DNA from: Mobula hypostoma | Taxonomy: Eukaryota | Length of the DNA stretch: 64,000 nucleotides | Assembly (NCBI RefSeq): GCF_963921235.1 | Contig: NC_086097.1 | Location: forward strand, 27,840,001-27,904,000 | Direction: 5' to 3' | In this document: positions 44,291-60,394 of the stretch, in pieces | Layout of the letters: each line of letters opens with the position of its first letter | Numbering within the stretch: position 1 is the first letter of the stretch | The notes under the pieces: model-generated | The model's database searches: none | What the model was told of the DNA's origin: nothing | The model's input: the letters and a program-made list of their open reading frames with translations, nothing else | Position numbers and translations under genes: made by a program

Positions 44291-46425
44291 AGGCCCCGGG
44301 GACTTATCTGTCCTAATGTATTTTAACAACTCCAACACTTCCTCTCCCTTAATATCAACATGCTCCAGAACATCAACCTCACTCATATTGTCCTCACCAT
44401 CATCAAGTTCCCTCTCATTGGTGAATACTGAAGAGAAGTATTCATTGAGGACCTCGCTCACTTCCACAGCCTCCAGGAACATCTTCCCACCTTTATCTCT
44501 AATCGGGCCTACCTTCACTCCTGTCATCCTTTTATCCTTCACATAATTGAAGAATGCCTTGGGGATCTCCTTTACCCTACTCGCCAAGGCCTTCTCATGC
44601 CCCCTTCTTGCTTTTCTCAGCCCCTTAAGCTCCTTTCTTGCTTCCCTATATTCCTGAATAGACCCATCTGATCCTTGCTTCCTAAACCTCATGTATGCTG
44701 CCTTCTTCCACCTGACTAGATTTTCCACCTCACTTGTCACCCATGGTTCCTTCACCCTACCATTCTTTATCTTCCTCACCGGGACAAATTTATCCCCGAC
44801 ATCCCGCAAGAGATCTCTAAACATCGACCACATGTCCATAGTACATTTCCCTGCAAAAACATCATCCCAATTCACACCCGCAAGTTCTAGCCTTATAGCC
44901 TCATAATTTGACTTTCCCCAATTAAAAATTCTCCTGTCCTCTCTGATTCTATCCTTTTCCATGATAATGCTAAAGGCCAGGGAGCGGTGGTCACTGTCCC
45001 CCAGATGCTCACCCACTGAGAGATCTGTGACCTGACCCGGTTCATTTCCTAGTACTAGATCTAGTATGGCATTCCCCCTAGTCAGCCTGTCCACCGACTG
45101 TTACAGGAAATCGTCCTGGACACACCTAACAAACTCTGCCCCATCTAAACCCTTGGAACTAATCAGGTTACAATCAATATTAGGGAAGTTAAAGTCACCC
45201 ATGATAACAACCCTGTTATTTTTGTACCTTTCCAAAATCTGCCTCCCAATCTGCTCCTCTGTATCTCTGCTGCTACCAGGGGGCCTATAGAATACCCCCA
45301 ATAGAGTAACTGCTCCCTTCCTGTTCCTGACTTCCACCCATATTGACTCAAAAGAGGATCCTGCTACATTACCCACCCTTTCTGTAGCTGTAATAGTATC
45401 CCTGACCAGTAATGCCACCCCTCCTCCCCTTTTTCCGCCCTCTCTATCCCTTTTAAAGCACTGAAATCCAGGAATATTGAGAATCCATTCCTGCCCTGGT
45501 GCCAGCCAAGTCTCTTGTGACAAAAGAACCAGTTATCAGAAGATTGATGCTGATAAGAGGACAATGGGGGAACATGCAAGGTGCTAATAAGAGAGAGACG
45601 AGAGAGATTACCGAAAGGAGACACAGTTCCGAGTATTGTCAGAGACTGGTGGCTTTGAACCCTGAACTGTTTGAAGTTGGATGGAATCCTGAACTGTTTG
45701 AAGTTTGATGGACAGGTGATACCCCAGCAGGGGGGATAAAAAGGGACAGGTTCGCTAAGGCAACAGACACACGACACCACGAGGTAACGAGACCCTGGAA
45801 GCGGTGTGCCCCCACAAGTTGCTGGGAGTTTTGGAGGTCTGGTCACGGGATCAGCCATAGACGCACAGGGTAGAAAGATACGGTCGGGCGGGAACCCGGT
45901 GTGTGTGTCCGCCCTTGCCTGGGTGCCGGGTTCACCGCAGAAGAACGATCGTATCTGGAATGGAGGGGTCACAGTCGGTGACCTCAGAAGACATTACAAA
46001 GGGCTCACCCGAAAGCTAACTGCGAGGAATATCGAAGGTCTGTGTGGAATCCGTTTTGAATATTCATTGGCTTTCGCTCTCTCTCTTCTCCCCGCCCCAA
46101 CGGCACAACAGCGATTACTGTGAACTGAACTGAACTCAATTGAACTGAACTTTGCGTCACTTGAAACTGATCATTTACCCCTAGACTGCGATAGAGCTTG
46201 ATTGATTCTATTATCCTAGTTCTGTATACATGTGTGTTTTATCATTGCTAAACTGTTGCATTTATATCCTTTTGATTAGAGTACTGTGTTATTTATTTCT
46301 TTAATAAAACTTTCTTAGTTCCAGTAATCCAGACTCCAACTAAGTGGTCCATTTCTGCTGGTTTGGCAACCCAGTTACGGGGTACATAACACTCTGTAAT
46401 GGCCACTACATCATAATTCCATGTA
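44291..46425 (-). mobile_element. CR1 LINE endonuclease/linker segment split by a solo LTR
   Basis: ETWL..GGGVALLV..YRPP..MGDFNFPNID; ILDLVLGNEP..DSDH; ends at DKSPGP; the CR1 sequence resumes at 46392-46425. Confidence 0.88.
45516..46391 (+). mobile_element. Solo LTR related to the LTRs at 54938/58947
   Basis: TG...CA termini; 4-bp TSD CTCT at 45512-45515 and 46392-46395; shared terminal sequence GGTTTGGCAACCCAGTTACGGGGTAC. Confidence 0.88.
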
Positions 46426-53144: not shown

Positions 53145-55775
53145 CCCTAGAGCAAGGGGTTTAGATGGGGTGGAATTTGTTAGGTGTGTTCAGGAAGGTT
53201 TCCTGACACTATGTGTAGATAAGTCTACAAGAGAGGGTGTACTTGATCTGGTATTGGGAAATGAACCTGGTCAGGTGTCAGGTCTCTTAGTGGAGAGCAT
53301 TTTGGAGATAGTGATCACAATTCTATCTCCTTTACCATAGCATTGGAGAGGGATAGGAACAGACAAGTTAGGAAAGTGTTTAATTGGACTAAGGGGAAAT
53401 ATAAAGCTATCAGGCAGGAACTTGGAAGCATAAATTGGGAACAGATATTCTCGGGGAAATGTACGGCAGAAATGTGGCAAATGTTCAGGGGACATTTGCG
53501 TGGCATTCTGCATAGGTATGCTCCAGTGATACAGGGAAAGGATGGTAGGGTACAGGAACCATGGTGTACAAAGGTTATTGAAAATCTAGCCAAGAAGAAA
53601 AGAAAAGCTTATGAAAGGGTCAAAAAACTAGGTACTGATAGAGATCTATGAGATTATAAGGCTAGCAGGAAGGAGCTTAAGAATGAAATTAGGAGAGCCA
53701 GAAAGGGCCATGAGAAGGCCTTGGAGAGCACGACATGCGAGCAAGGCATTCTAGAAGTATGTGAAGAGCAAGAGGATAAAACTTAAGAGAGTAGGACCAA
53801 TCAAGTGCGACGGTGGAAAAGTGTGTATAGAGATAGCAGAGGTACTTAATGAATACTTTGCTTCAGTATTCACTATGGAAAAGGATCTTGGTGATTGTAG
53901 GGATGACTTAGAGCAGACTGAAAACTCTAGCATATAGACATTAAGAAAGAGGATGTGCTGGAGCTTTTGGAAAGCATCAAGTTGGATAAGTCACCAGGAC
54001 CGGACGAGATATACCCCAGGCTACTGTGGGAGGCGAATGAGGAGATTGCTGAGCCTCTGGCAATGATCTTTGCATCATCATTGGGGATGGGAGAGGTTCC
54101 GGAGGATTAGAGGGTTACAGATGTTGTTCCCTTATTCCAGAAAGGAAGTAGGGATAGCTCAGGAAATTATAGACCAGCGAGTCTGACTTCAGTGGTTGGT
54201 AAGTGGTTCTGGGACCTCTTCTCTTCGTGATTTTTATGACCTGGATGAGGAAGTGAAGGGATGGGTTAGTAAATTTGCGGATGACACAAAGTTGTGGGTG
54301 TTGTGGATAGTGTGGAGGGCTAACAGAGGTTACAGTGGGACATTGACAGGATGCAAAACTGGGCTAAGAAGCAGCAGATGAAGTTCAACCCAGTTAAGTG
54401 TGAGGTGGTTATTTGGTTGGTCAAATATGATGGCAGAATATAGTATTAATGGTAAGACTCTTGCCAGTGTGGAGGTTCAGAGGTCCACAGGACACTCAAA
54501 GCTGCTGTGCAGGTTGACTGTGTGGTTAAGGCAGCATACAGTGCATTGCTCATCTTAACCGTGGGATTGAGTTCAAGAGTCGAGAGGTAATGTTATAGCT
54601 GTATAGAACCCTGGTCAAACCCCACTTGGAGTACTGTGCTCAGTTCTGGTCACCTCACTACAGGAAGGATGTAGAAACTCTTGAAAGGCTGCACAGGAAA
54701 TTTACAAGGATGTTGCCTGGACTGGGGAGCATGCTGTACAAGAATAGGTTAAATGAACTTTGCCTTTTCTCCTTGGAGTGACGGAGGATGAGAGGTGACC
54801 TGATAGAGGTGTATAAAATGATGAAAGGCATTGGTCGTGTGGATAGTCAGAGGCTTTTTCCCCAGGGCTGAAATGGCTAACATGAGACAGCACAGTTTTA
54901 AGGTGTTTGGATGTAGGTACAGAGGAGATGTCAGGGGTGTTACGTACCCCGTAACTGGGTTGCCAAACCAGCAGAAATGGATCACTCAGTTGGAGTCTGG
55001 AGTACTAGAACTAAGAAAGTTTTATTAAAGAAACAAGCAACACAGTAATCGAAAGGATAATAAATGCAACAATTCAACAATGATAACCACACATGTGCAC
55101 AGAATTAAGATAACAGCATCAATCAAGCTCTATCGTTGTCTAGGGGTAAATGACCAATTTCAAAATGACTCAAAGTTCAGTTCGCAGTAATCGTTGCCAT
55201 GGCGATGGACAAGGTGGGGGAAGAGAGACAGAGAGAACAACTCATCATTCAGCACAGCTTCACTCACAGACCAGCGGGATGGCTCACAACCAGCTTTTGG
55301 GCAGGTCCTTGGTGATGTCACCTGAGGTCACCGACTGTGACCCCTCCTCCAGATGCGGTCGATCCTCTGCAGTGAACCCGGCACCCAGGCAAGGGCGGAC
55401 ACACACCGGGTTCCCGCTGATCGTACCTTTCCACCCTTGTCGTTGTCTGGGACTTCTCACCCACTCGTGAGAAGCGCACCGCTTCCAGGGTCTCGTTACC
55501 TCGGGTGGCGTGTGTGTCTGTCTTAGCGAACCTGTCCCTTTTTATCCCCCTGCTGGGGTATCGCCTGTCCATCACTTCAAACAGTTCAGGGTTCAAAGGG
55601 GGGAGCCGCTCCAGACAGCTCTTCCTCCCACATCCCTTCATTACACATCTCCAGACGCTGCTCCATTGTTCCTTATCTCTCCTTTCCCTGAGGGCAGGTG
55701 GCAGACCAACTGCTGATGCCACTGATGCTAGCCCAGGCCAGCAAACATCTTAATTTTATGTGTATTCTCGTAACA

Positions 55776-55787
55776 CTTCCCCCCTTT
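55776..55787 (-). promoter_or_regulatory. Polypurine tract
   Basis: AAAGGGGGGAAG directly abutting the 3' LTR. Confidence 0.9.
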
Positions 55788-55947
55788 AAGGATTTTTACC
55801 GGGAGGTAAAAATTACAAACATGACTACATTGTCTGATACATACACAATATACATCTTTAACAGTTATTTAGCTAATACAGAGAATTTGAAGCTGTCAAC
55901 ACCTTGACAGACAGTCATCACATTTTCTGTTCCTTTTACACGTGTTA

Positions 55948-58848
55948 TTAATAATCCCTTAGACCAGGCTCCAACTCAGCAAACTTCATAGTGGCCAAAA
56001 ACACTGATGAATTGCGACCAATGTAACCTCTCATTTGGTTTTGTCCCGGACCACAACAACAAGGGTCGTCCCATTCCGACTCAATTTTCCCTCGCAAGGG
56101 CTTAGTAGGAGGGGGACGGGTATTGACCGCAGAGTTATTGCAAAACTTCCTGCAGTACCCCACCATCTCCAAAAGCCTTCTGAGGGCCCTCTTGTCTGTC
56201 GGGGTTGGGAGGTCAGCGATAGCCTGCACTGTAGCTTGCATCACTGCCAGCTGCCCCTGTGTCACCACAATTCCCAGGTAAGTGACATTCGTGTGGCCGA
56301 ATTCATTTTTTCCAAGGCTCACTATCACGCTGGCTTCAGACAGCCGTATTAAATTGCCAATACACACCTCTGTGTTCATCAGCCCTTTAGTCACTGAATT
56401 ACTCGAAAAATATGGGTGTTGTTTGCTTGGCTGCCCTATTGTAACAGACATAACCCAACGTCCCAGTTCTTTGCATTTCCTCGGGACAATCAAACACATG
56501 GGTGCGAGTCGTTTAATTACTCCTTCGGGGATTAAGGGAGAGACCTTATCAGTAGACCTGGCCAAAACAATAGCCTTCTCCCATCTGACCGATCCCATCC
56601 TAATCTTTTCAAAATGGTTTTTTCCTCTTATCAAGGGGCCCCTAGCTTCATGGATTTCCACGCTAACACCGACTAGGTTTGTTAGCATATCAAAAGCCGG
56701 TGACCGTCTCAGTTCGCGTCGGTCATGATCAATAACATTTTTCCCCCTGGGCAGCCGGTAAATCTCTTTCATGATTCCACCAACTGTTTCCTCCAGCACC
56801 GCAAAATGTCCACCGGGGGGTACCTCGTGGGCCATGTTAAAAACCTCATCCCCGTAACTCTTTTGCACCACCCCCCACTCCTCATCTGCGGATGCTGTAC
56901 TTGATTTCCCTTTCTTCCTTAGCACTTCCTCATCCGCACAATAGCTTGTCAAGGCTGTGTCAGAGAGAGCGGTCTCGGCAAAAACCATCAGCCCCTCGTC
57001 TCGCTCCTGCGTCTGCACAAATTCTTTCCTGGCTACTGCTACGTCCGTCCCAGCTCCCTCACTACCTCTTATCTCACTACACCCTGTCTCATACAAGGTT
57101 GGCAGAAATGTTTCAGCCAAATTCACCATCGCGGGCGGGGCCTCCATGCTGGCAGGCTGACCTGTCAATCTCACGACTGGGAACACGATTCCTCCGGCGA
57201 TGTCATTACCGAGCAAGACTTCCACGTCTTTCATCGGTAATTCGGACCTCACCCCAATCGTGACTAGTCCAGAGACCAGGTTGCTCTGTAAATGTATCTG
57301 GTGCAAAGGGACTGACTCTGTCCCTTCCCCAACACCTTTGACCTCTACCTCCCCAATCTGGGTCTCTGAGCTAAACTCTAATACACTCTTCAGTATTAGT
57401 GACTGACACGCTCCCGTGTCTCTCCAGATCCGCACTGGAACTGGTTTTAACCTCTCCTTCACTGACACCAGTCCGGCCGAGATAAACCTCTCGCGCCCTT
57501 CCTGGACTTGTTCAGACCTGTCCTTCCCTAGCGGTTCGCTTAACAGCTCAATACAGCCATTCAAAATTTCCGCTTTTCCTTTCCCCGTCTCCTTCCTTGG
57601 GGCAAAGCACCTGGACGCAAAGTGTCCGACTTTCCCACAATTATAACAGACGACCCCAGGAGACTTCCTACCAGACTGCTCCCGGTCTACCTTATCCTTT
57701 TCACTAGTCCCCGGCTTACTTTCTGACTTTTCCGGTGGACTCCCCCCGCCGTCCTGACTACCCTTCTGGTAGCCTTTACTCGGGGCAAACTTCATTTTAT
57801 GCGTCAACGCATACTCATCCGCTAACTTAGCAGTTGCGGCTAACGTGGCTGCCTCTTTCTCATCGAGGTAGGGTCTCATACCCTCAGGGACACAACCTTT
57901 AAACTGCTCAATCAGAACCAGTTGCAGCAGTCTGTCGTAATCCCCCTCTACCCCTTTCGAGGCGCACCAACGCTCACAATATGTTTGCATCTCACAAGCA
58001 AACTCCAAATACGTGCGGTCCCACCGCTTCCTCGCATTCCGGAACCTCTGCCGGTATGCCTCCGGGACCAACTCATAAGTCCTGAGGATGGCCTCCTTCA
58101 CCACCTCATACTTCTGGGCATCTTCCGGGGATAAAGCGGAGTAAGCTTGTTGGGCTTTCCCTTTCAGTACACTCTGAAGTAAGACAACCCACTTATCCCT
58201 CGGCCATTCCTGACTTATAGCTACTTTTTCGAAGTGGAGAAAGTACCGATCCACATCGGTATCGTCAAATGGGGGAACCAGCCTAACCTCCTGGGTCGCC
58301 CGGAACCCTCCACCTTGGTTCGGCACGAGCCCCTGCTCGGCCCTTATCCTTAACTTTTCCAGCTCAAATTCCCTTTCCCTCTGTTTCTCCTCTCTCTCCA
58401 ACTGTCTGTCCCTCTCTCTCTCTTCTCTCTCCAACTGTCTGTCCCTCTCCTGCCTTTCTACCTCTCTCTCTTTCTCCTGCCTTTCTAACTCTCTCTCTTT
58501 CTCCTGCCTTTCTAACTCTCTCTCTTTCTCCTGCCTTTCTAACTCTCTCTCTTTCTCCTGCCTTTCTAACTGCCGTACCCGGAACTCGTGCTCGAGTCTC
58601 AGTTTTTCAAGCTGTACCTGTACCGCGTCTCCAGCAGGTTTTCCAATAGACACCTCCCCCAGCTCACCTTGGGGAAACACACCTTTAGATACATAGTGCT
58701 CTACAATAGCTCTGTGTATCTCCTCTCTCCTCATTGTCGACTTCACCTTAGAAAGATTCAACCGTTTGGCCACAGCTAACAATTCCGATTTCCTGGCATC
58801 CTCTAATGCCTCCAAGGTCGGCGCCTTTATAAATTCCTCAACCTCCAT
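55948..58848 (-). CDS. Gag (SCAN-like capsid, CCHC knuckle) - protease - vestigial IN/RT/RH polyprotein, 966 aa
   Basis: YFLHFEKVA..PEAYRQRFR; CYNCGKVGHFASRC; WRDTGACQSL; AHEVPPGGH (IN zinc-finger remnant); VTYLG..LRRLLEMVGYCRKF (RT thumb remnant). Confidence 0.9.
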   Translation of the reverse strand: MEVEEFIKAPTLEALEDARKSELLAVAKRLNLSKVKSTMRREEIHRAIVEHYVSKGVFPQGELGEVSIGKPAGDAVQVQLEKLRLEHEFRVRQLERQEKERELERQEKERELERQEKERELERQEKEREVERQERDRQLEREERERDRQLEREEKQREREFELEKLRIRAEQGLVPNQGGGFRATQEVRLVPPFDDTDVDRYFLHFEKVAISQEWPRDKWVVLLQSVLKGKAQQAYSALSPEDAQKYEVVKEAILRTYELVPEAYRQRFRNARKRWDRTYLEFACEMQTYCERWCASKGVEGDYDRLLQLVLIEQFKGCVPEGMRPYLDEKEAATLAATAKLADEYALTHKMKFAPSKGYQKGSQDGGGSPPEKSESKPGTSEKDKVDREQSGRKSPGVVCYNCGKVGHFASRCFAPRKETGKGKAEILNGCIELLSEPLGKDRSEQVQEGRERFISAGLVSVKERLKPVPVRIWRDTGACQSLILKSVLEFSSETQIGEVEVKGVGEGTESVPLHQIHLQSNLVSGLVTIGVRSELPMKDVEVLLGNDIAGGIVFPVVRLTGQPASMEAPPAMVNLAETFLPTLYETGCSEIRGSEGAGTDVAVARKEFVQTQERDEGLMVFAETALSDTALTSYCADEEVLRKKGKSSTASADEEWGVVQKSYGDEVFNMAHEVPPGGHFAVLEETVGGIMKEIYRLPRGKNVIDHDRRELRRSPAFDMLTNLVGVSVEIHEARGPLIRGKNHFEKIRMGSVRWEKAIVLARSTDKVSPLIPEGVIKRLAPMCLIVPRKCKELGRWVMSVTIGQPSKQHPYFSSNSVTKGLMNTEVCIGNLIRLSEASVIVSLGKNEFGHTNVTYLGIVVTQGQLAVMQATVQAIADLPTPTDKRALRRLLEMVGYCRKFCNNSAVNTRPPPTKPLRGKIESEWDDPCCCGPGQNQMRGYIGRNSSVFLATMKFAELEPGLRDY
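58447..58571 (-). repeat. 27-bp coding tandem repeat (LERQEKERE) in Gag
   Basis: CTCCTGCCTTTCTAACTCTCTCTCTTT repeated about 4.5 times. Confidence 0.9.
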
Positions 58849-58924
58849 TTCTGCTGTTTGTCTTTTCTTTCTTTCGGGAATTTTAACCCAATCAATTTAC
58901 TCCGTCCCAAATTTAGCGTTCAAA

Positions 58925-58942
58925 ATCCCGGACGAGCCCCCA
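58925..58942 (-). promoter_or_regulatory. Primer-binding site, tRNA-Pro
   Basis: TGGGGGCTCGTCCGGGAT, 4 nt downstream of the 5' LTR; the classic PBS-Pro sequence. Confidence 0.92.
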
Positions 58943-60394
58943 CTTATGTTACGTACCCCGTAACTGGGTTGCCAAACCAGCAGAAATGGATCACTCAGTT
59001 GGAGTCTGGAGTACTAGAACTAAGAAAGTTTTATTAAAGAAACAAGCAACACAGTAATCGAAAGGATAATAAATGCAACAATTCAACAATGATAACCACA
59101 CATGTGCACAGAATTAAGATAACAGCATCAATCAAGCTCTATCGTTGTCTAGGGGTAAATGACCAATTTCAAAATGACTCAAAGTTCAGTTCGCAGTAAT
59201 CGTTGCCATGGCGATGGACAAGGTGGGGGAAGAGAGACAGAGAGAACAACTCATCATTCAGCACAGCTTCACTCACAGACCAGCGGGATGGCTCACAACC
59301 AGCTTTTGGGCAGGTCCTTGGTGATGTCACCTGAGGTCACCGACTGTGACCCCTCCTCCAGATGCGGTCGATCCTCTGCAGTGAACCCGGCACCCAGGCA
59401 AGGGCGGACACACACCGGGTTCCCGCTGATCGTACCTTTCCACCCTTGTCGTTGTCTGGGACTTCTCACCCACTCGTGAGAAGCGCACCGCTTCCAGGGT
59501 CTCGTTACCTCGGGTGGCGTGTGTGTCTGTCTTAGCGAACCTGTCCCTTTTTATCCCCCTGCTGGGGTATCGCCTGTCCATCACTTCAAACAGTTCAGGG
59601 TTCAAAGGGGGGAGCCGCTCCAGACAGCTCTTCCTCCCACATCCCTTCATTACACATCTCCAGACGCTGCTCCATTGTTCCTTATCTCTCCTTCCCCTGA
59701 GGGCAGGTGGCAGACCAACTGCTGATGCCACTGATGCTAGCCCAGGCCAGCAAACATCTTAATTTTATGTGTATTCTCGTAACAGGGGTAAGTTGTTTTT
59801 TTAAACGCAGAGAGTGGTAAGTGTGTGGAATGGGCTGCCGGCGACTGTGGTGGAGGCAAATACAATAAGGTCTTTTAAGAGGCCCCTGGATATGTACATG
59901 GAGCTTAGGAAAATAGAGGGCTATGGGTAACCCCAGGTTATTTCTAAAGTAAGTAAATGTTTGGCACAGCATTGTGGGCTGAAGGGCCTGTACGGTGCTG
60001 TGGGTTTTCTATGTTTCAGTATCTTTAGATGCTTTATCCCTCCAGGAATTTAGTTCCTCTCCTCAAACATATTCAATGACTTGGCCTCAACAATCTTCCA
60101 TGGCTGTGAATTCCACAAGTTCATACTCAAAATGAGGAAGTTCTCATTTCAGTCCCAGATCTCTTGGTTTATAATCTGATACTGTATTCAGAACAACCCT
60201 GCCAAGAATAAACATCCTCCCTGCATGAAGTCCAGCTATCCCTGCCAGCATTTTGTAAGCTCAATTACCTCCTCTTTCATGTTACTAAACCCCAATGAAA
60301 AGAAAATTCTTTTATCTAATCTCTTCACTTTTAGCTGGAATTCGGAGAGCTTTACTGTACTTCCTCTATGGCAAGGAAGTACCAAGGTGGATAA

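Follow-up and report, generated by a model that had tools for sequence, protein, structure and literature searches.

A short Gmr1-like retrotransposon family in Mobula hypostoma that keeps a pol-derived tail in an open reading frame

The stretch analysed here, referred to as the window, comprises 64,000 nucleotides of the Mobula hypostoma genome (assembly GCF_963921235.1, contig NC_086097.1, positions 27,840,001 to 27,904,000 of the forward strand) and carries on its minus strand, at window positions 54938–59784, a long terminal repeat (LTR) retrotransposon that encodes Gag and protease and retains only pieces of pol. It belongs to a family with a rare full-length counterpart, and comparison of the copies leads us to a reading that we hold to be probable: a short element coding for its own Gag and protease would borrow the enzymes of the rare helper, recombine its head with it and keep its dead pol tail translatable. 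What carries this reading is a tail in which amino acids drift at the neutral rate and length changes preserve the frame, and a pattern of descent in which LTR and gag follow one history, protease and tail another.

A dispersed short family and its rare full-length partner

The two LTRs, both of 838 bp, lie at 58947–59784 (5′ LTR, TG...CA) and 54938–55775 (3′ LTR, with one AATAAA at LTR position 750); they differ at a single site (T55685/C59694) and enclose 3,171 bp that include a primer-binding site (PBS, 58925–58942) and a polypurine tract (PPT, 55776–55787). GGGG borders both outer ends as a target site duplication (TSD), at 59785–59788 next to the 5′ LTR and at 54934–54937 next to the 3′ LTR. 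These termini stand as described in a first-pass annotation made from the letters alone. The target was an older repeat that contains LINE-like coding remnants, and since an unbroken copy of this flanking repeat exists at 494–1041, the element is a clean insertion. Its single open reading frame (ORF) of 966 amino acids plus stop (55948–58848, minus strand, as for all features of the element) comprises Gag, protease and in-frame pol remnants, and only two Pfam matches in it pass the cut-off: SCAN (PF02023, E 2.7e-12), the capsid C-terminal domain at residues 262–351 (57796–58065), and zf-CCHC, the nucleocapsid zinc knuckle (57607–57648). The protease region (57140–57600) contains DTG at 57412–57420 and LLGND at 57202–57216, so that capsid, knuckle and DTG are found as first annotated. 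No rve, reverse transcriptase (RT; RVT_1) or RNase H profile of Pfam was matched in the ORF, even at E<=1. Upstream, gag holds a 27-nt coding repeat (58307–58596) specifying an E/R/K/Q-rich coiled segment; its length differs widely among copies, intact frames ranging from 921 to 1,023 residues.

The first-pass annotation had proposed a non-autonomous lineage that borrows RT and integrase, and the genome upholds this. A 24-mer beside the integrase junction, present in 47/47 young copies and 0/31 others, has ~1,410 exact matches in the genome (0 for the reversed-word control), and the 40 scored matches to the tail as query were all at least 99% identical. Loci picked by the tail had two LTRs in 39/39 cases and a perfect 4-bp TSD in 33/39, while twenty picked by the LTR comprised nine deleted-type elements with the same short internal region and 11 solo LTRs with TSDs. 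Sampling by position along one contig yielded 20 copies, each with two LTR matches; their median LTR-pair divergence is 0.36% (18 measured), and the young deleted copies range from 0.12 to 0.36%. The idea of a single dead copy is thereby rejected. L010 (split LTR hits), L053 (three LTRs), L080 and L085 (both rearranged), as well as the full-length loci L063, L067 and L073, were left out of the counts. Tandem or seemingly tandem units sharing LTRs, of short and full-length form, were seen at L053, L021, L027, L066–L067, L102 and L114. The deleted form may be present in organism B as well, but the hint is thin: one contig of guessed type crosses the junction of the integrase deletion, with 33 letters on its shorter side.

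A partner was expected from LTR and PBS likeness, and it exists. With the integrase core of a stingray relative as query in the same genome, 16 full-length elements were fetched: seven of type A, whose LTRs are 92–97% identical (with gaps) to those of the element, six of type B (LTR ~80%) and three of type C (~71–83% over part of the LTR). L061, of the young A-type subfamily, encodes SCAN, knuckle, integrase, RT and RNase H in one frame of 1,535 residues (H2C2 at 673, rve at 750, RVT_1 at 1162, RNase H at 1408), and its PBS and PPT pattern is that of the element, whose PPT is identical to the young helper's or one base off. An A-specific integrase word marking the young full-length form occurs 22 times and a wider full-length word 88 times (reversed-word controls 0 for both), and a DNA search found 13 integrase cores at >=98%; the short form thus outnumbers the young full-length form by ~60:1. 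The LTR pairs of young full-length copies diverge by 0.35%, similar to the young deleted ones. With cis-elements and age matching, this subfamily is likely the helper that supplies RT and integrase to the short form. An rve scan of the genome also yielded four fetched long-frame hits (L076–L079) without internal similarity to the element, which were dropped. Moreover, the window itself holds at 45560–46391 (+) an older LTR of the same superfamily, apparently solo, 87–89% identical to types B and C and 78% to the LTR of the element.

Alignment with L061 shows 888 nt of the integrase missing from the element, with 384 and 54 nt gone from RT and 258 nt from RNase H, and what is left is collinear with the domain order of the helper. 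Reading along the frame, the protease-integrase linker and an integrase zinc-finger remnant (56729–57076; both His retained, the Cys pair unmatched) are followed by the in-frame junction of the 888-nt integrase-core loss (56680–56729), an integrase-RT linker remnant, after which 384 nt of the N-terminal part of RT are lost in frame (56410–56680), a remnant of the RT catalytic motif before the 54-nt in-frame loss (56350–56405), the RT thumb, after which an in-frame loss of 258 nt removes most of RNase H (56059–56347), and an RNase H remnant (55899–56053) that is in frame to ~55988 and then shows the sole frame-breaking lesion and the stop at 55948–55950. The short diverged pieces of pol recognised earlier are real, the thumb (residues 833–910) giving a weak match against solved structures (E 0.001), and two more in-frame remnants join them, KQHPY of the integrase-RT linker and NSSVFLATMK of RNase H. 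YxDD and an integrase core are absent, as had been noted, although the RT catalytic site was not simply deleted: YIDD of the helper aligns with CIGN in the element. KGTENV and DCLSR do lie out of frame past the stop, and the distance from stop to LTR is 172 nt in the element and 120 nt in the helper. Among named proteins, the closest to the ORF are labelled Mobula hypostoma (80–97%), then come other rays, and after these relatives of 1,500–1,600 residues with the complete Gmr1-type domain set. Such copies are being annotated as host genes: the top match, P0001, a 97%-identical copy of the ORF, bears the unrelated name ‘metastasis-associated in colon cancer protein 1 isoform X1’, which misfits its sequence and suggests a gene-model mix-up.

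The deletions are older than the young family. A query taken from a B-type full-length copy (3′ end plus LTR) also matched elements whose match stops at the RNase H junction of the short family; of 20 such loci fetched, 18 were whole elements with B-type LTRs and the same pol deletions, ending in the same last residues as the young short form where the last frame is open. A word specific to this old wave occurs ~550 times (reversed-word control 0), and its LTR pairs diverge by a median of 2.5%, against 3.2% in B-type full-length copies. The 888, 384, 54 and 258-nt junctions are identical in both short waves, so the genome holds many dispersed copies (1,410 and 550) lacking the same enzymes at the same junctions, next to an autonomous partner with matching cis-elements and age. 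A spliced-RNA origin of the deletions was considered and found no backing, 0/6 gaps against L075 reading GT...AG, a weak test given the loose placement of gaps.

The PBS called perfect for tRNA-Pro is indeed so in this copy, but this is a minority form: among 67 young copies 46 have a mismatched PBS, 18 the perfect one and three a mosaic or other form, the mismatched form being the most frequent in either short wave and among the helpers. What the perfect PBS matches is tRNA-Pro; one exact pattern, a narrow test, found 0 genomic tRNAs matching the mismatched form. Perfect sites are scattered over two weakly resolved trees, with 16 and 15 changes where shuffling gives 16.0 and 16.1, as though each insertion restored them from the tRNA and they seldom gave rise to lineages. 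This fits a PBS copied from the tRNA primer at each insertion while the source copies are mismatched, as described for mouse endogenous retroviruses (ERVs) in PMC7472051, and the two forms resemble the priming-versus-silencing trade-off of those ERVs.

Selection on the frame and on the peptide

Fixed differences between the young and old short waves give dN/dS values of 0.12 for capsid-nucleocapsid, where the SCAN domain is under purifying selection, 0.59 for protease and 1.02 for the tail. The tail against the helper gives 0.98, whereas homologous segments between helper subfamilies give 0.28 (fixed-difference comparison, p 6e-5 and 0.0014). Among 66 young copies, variants shared between copies have dN/dS 0.18–0.26 in gag-protease, and singletons 0.86 there and 1.12 in the tail. 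From its motifs and a dN/dS below 1, the protease of the element is probably active.

The frame behaves differently from the peptide. After the protease, the net length changes against the intact helpers L060 and L061 (63, 21, 12, 15, -3, 888, 18, -3, 384, 54, -3 and 258 nt) are multiples of three in 12/12 cases; this tally leaves out a junction with zero net change and a 3-nt change within the protease. As baseline, 12/39 rare indels acquired by old copies after insertion are in frame (p 2e-5). The first frame-breaking change affects the last 13 codons, and there and beyond 3/3 changes against L061 are out of frame. Likewise, 4/4 fixed indels before the stop are in frame and 4/4 after it are out of frame. 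Only 2.6 stops would be expected between the two deleted waves, but against the helper ~6 over 269 codons, both branches counted. Because the tail evolves at dN/dS ~1 and yet all 12 length changes keep the frame, translation to the end of the frame, rather than the tail peptide, is likely what is selected. The post-protease tail amounts to ~396 pol-derived codons, longer than the ~300 first estimated, and is open as claimed. The full frame is kept in 36/47 close copies, and none of the outcomes named beforehand as fatal to the non-autonomous reading, namely a lone copy, sisters full of stops or complete RT and integrase cores, occurred. Here a vertebrate genome offers a natural experiment in which selection on a frame is separable from selection on its protein.

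Several observations pull the other way. The full frame survives in only 7/20 of the copies sampled by position. Among the 66 young copies, two that differ in their TSDs have in common a protease deletion of 199 nt that shifts the frame, while a stop at codon 806 is found in two copies and a 1-nt deletion likewise in two. Frame-broken templates thus seem to spread occasionally, and a 1-nt insertion turns up in three old copies and again in a young one. Tail stops common to more than one copy number one against 2.4 expected, a count of little power. Finally, shared polymorphisms of the tail have dN/dS ~0.6 (p 0.04 against neutrality), and there may be weak protein-level constraint.

This last value also speaks for the alternative that the tail is a repurposed domain, a capsid-assembly spacer or a decoy binding the RT or integrase of the helper, whose frame is kept for its peptide. 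The RT thumb is still recognisable, and a review credits the cis effect of the mouse intracisternal A-particle (IAP) element IΔ1 to its fusion protein (PMC6466679). We nevertheless find this alternative unlikely, given fixed differences that are neutral both between the deleted waves and against the helper, the loss of four more pieces (27, 21, 12 and 18 nt) in the young wave and the disappearance of catalytic and zinc-binding residues. Of the two reasons first offered for an open frame, RNA stability, or alternatively translation in cis, fits these data, and a repurposed C-terminal domain is disfavoured.

Exchanged heads and a proposed life cycle

Diagnostic sites in LTR and gag sort by wave in 74 cases and by autonomy in 0; from where the knuckle ends through the 3′ untranslated region (UTR), that is protease and tail, nine sort by wave and 92 by autonomy (p 9e-40). 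Trees of 29 rows, including 8/47 young and 8/18 old short copies, agree: young short and young full-length copies mix in one clade in LTR and gag, in conflict with the protease and tail trees, which unite both short waves with 100% support, and approximately unbiased (AU) tests on 23 rows reject one shared history (p 7e-7 and 8e-4). The mosaic has one break, at the end of the nucleocapsid, the approximate crossover zone being 57602–57700, upstream of which the element matches the young helper and downstream the deleted lineage, including its protease allele. Because LTR and gag group by wave and protease and tail by autonomy, the LTR-gag heads were exchanged by recombination between short and full-length lineages. 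The element, first described as very young, is a young copy whose tail lineage predates the A/B split of the helper, an old lineage with a changed head. Two points limit this account: the old deleted copies were picked with a query rich in B-type LTR, so that their LTR type is partly by construction, and trees and AU tests leave the direction of exchange ambiguous.

Template switching in mixed particles, for which we cite a review (PMC6894440), is the likely cause. It is improbable that the common LTR and gag arose instead by gene conversion at the DNA level or by repeated deletion of each new helper. The ~2,000 copies do offer many conversion substrates, and the ambiguous direction suits conversion too, but young copies have A-type LTRs at both ends, the two being almost identical, as expected from reverse transcription; independent deletion in each wave is excluded by the junctions common to both and by the single tail clade.

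Two further observations concern the mosaic. L088 belongs to the old wave, yet the start of its protease matches that of the young wave, and it has an extra internal deletion; it is possibly a transitional recombinant. In L060 and L064 the last 110 nt before the 3′ LTR are 96–100% identical to the young short form, other A-type copies being 85–87% identical over the first half of that stretch, a pattern that would mark another exchange point, of recent date, close to the PPT.

The defective lineage survived the turnover of its helper because it came to share the latter's new LTR and gag; for the same reason, LTR-based dating and family calls misjudge the age of such a lineage.

That the open frame is a mere by-product of RNA-level constraint (packaging or structure) or of chance, the deletions being lucky, is the least credible view and is largely refuted, since the few frame-broken variants common to several copies and the low number of stops expected between the waves, which favour it, are outweighed by the excess of in-frame changes over the baseline, the change of fixed indels at the stop and the stops missing against the helper.

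The following cycle would account for selection on translation without selection on the peptide. Gag and protease would be made from the short-form RNA, which would be packaged together with helper RNA and helper Gag-Pol; the helper enzymes would copy and integrate it, and template switching in these mixed particles would renew the LTR-gag head. Mobilisation in trans is what the missing RT and integrase cores, together with the young LTR pairs, point to. An early stop after the protease would leave a 3′ UTR of ~2.1 kb instead of ~0.9 kb, and the longer 3′ UTR would trigger nonsense-mediated decay (NMD), to which we give a little over half of the weight. Alternatively, an early stop would cut the time during which nascent Gag stays tied to its own RNA (about a third of the weight), the small remainder falling to other causes. 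In favouring decay avoidance over such tethering in cis we argue from analogy: premature gag stops reduce packaging of Rous sarcoma virus (RSV) RNA via NMD (PMC5035971), defective RNAs of mouse hepatitis virus (MHV) require translation and not its product (PMC4395149), and the IAP IΔ1 fusion works in cis (PMC6466679). Why defective LTR elements need translation, for decay avoidance or packaging in cis, becomes testable with ~2,000 dated copies.

A bolder version of this reading, which we put forward tentatively as the less probable, would treat the whole as a two-component retrotransposon with a shared head (LTR, PBS and gag) joined to either a full or a hollow old pol cassette. As gag and pol of the helper share a single frame, the ~60-fold commoner short form would feed surplus capsid and protease and the partnership would be mutual, the hollow cassette serving as a sequence-indifferent translated spacer against RNA decay. 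Stingrays may have an independent equivalent with a duplicated gag-protease as filler. Proteins P0010, P0014, P0015, P0019 and P0029, labelled Hemitrygon and Hypanus, combine Gag-protease with a different long open tail, which, in the three of the five examined, includes a decayed gag-protease duplicate and has no pol domain; possibly they represent an independent short family with a filler tail.

Place among known non-autonomous retrotransposons

By domain order, capsid and termini the element is assignable to the Gmr1-type LTR retrotransposons: integrase lies upstream of RT and RNase H in L061 and in the collinear remnants of the element, the capsid C-terminal domain is of SCAN type, and TG...CA LTR ends, PBS, PPT and a short TSD are present. 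Gmr1-like Ty3/gypsy elements are described in bioRxiv 10.1101/2025.03.03.638093 as carrying SCAN capsid, protease, integrase, RT and RNase H and as abundant in fish; the helper has all these domains in that order and the remnants keep it, but the dominant form here is without integrase and RT cores. Our literature search, which did not extend to Repbase or Dfam, found no paper on a non-autonomous Gmr1 family or on this family.

A close likeness in mechanism is offered by mouse IAP IΔ1, in which an internal deletion likewise creates one in-frame gag-pol fusion ORF in a non-autonomous element that dominates new insertions and whose translation or fusion product acts in cis (PMC6466679, PMC10924933). 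It works alike without being a member of the same group: IΔ1 is an ERV with a single 1.9-kb deletion and requires Gag in trans, whereas the present element is a Gypsy with whole Gag-protease, 12 successive in-frame length changes and neutral amino-acid drift. A possible need for translation in cis, as in IΔ1, is argued here from population data, in which some frame-broken variants are shared. In wheat, RLG_Sabrina_SA and RLG_WHAM, with the helper RLG_Wilma, are Gypsy elements with Gag and protease only and high copy number that co-evolve with their autonomous partner and are proposed as Gag suppliers to a cooperative complex; these are plant elements, and the available part of the paper describes no long in-frame pol remnant (PMC9744471). 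Bovine ERVK[2-1-LTR] C/D, MusD/ETn and KoRVA/RecKoRV are pairs in which the defective form outnumbers the competent one and shares its flanks, with an older central segment and recombination between the two, the ERVK D-type being without intact ORFs (PMC10924933). Here, old pol of the family itself forms the centre and has stayed in frame.

LTR swapping across waves is reportedly known from an autonomous/non-autonomous pair in soybean, said to have been studied by Du et al. in 2010 under the names SARE and SNARE; in the present family the shared block takes in the LTR, the PBS and gag as far as the zinc knuckle. The analogy with TR-GAG elements, drawn in the first-pass annotation, turns out to be loose, IAP IΔ1 and the wheat pair being closer. 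A TR-GAG is a plant element not known to carry a pol-derived coding remnant. The present element keeps Gag and lacks RT and integrase as TR-GAGs do, but it resides in an animal genome and has its long pol-derived frame. TR-GAGs are a plant class of size and content, for which the part of PMC13570524 available describes neither a long translated pol remnant nor a tracked helper. Each ingredient of the present family, whether Gag-protease-only partners, defective forms with an older centre or LTR swapping, has its precedent in these systems.

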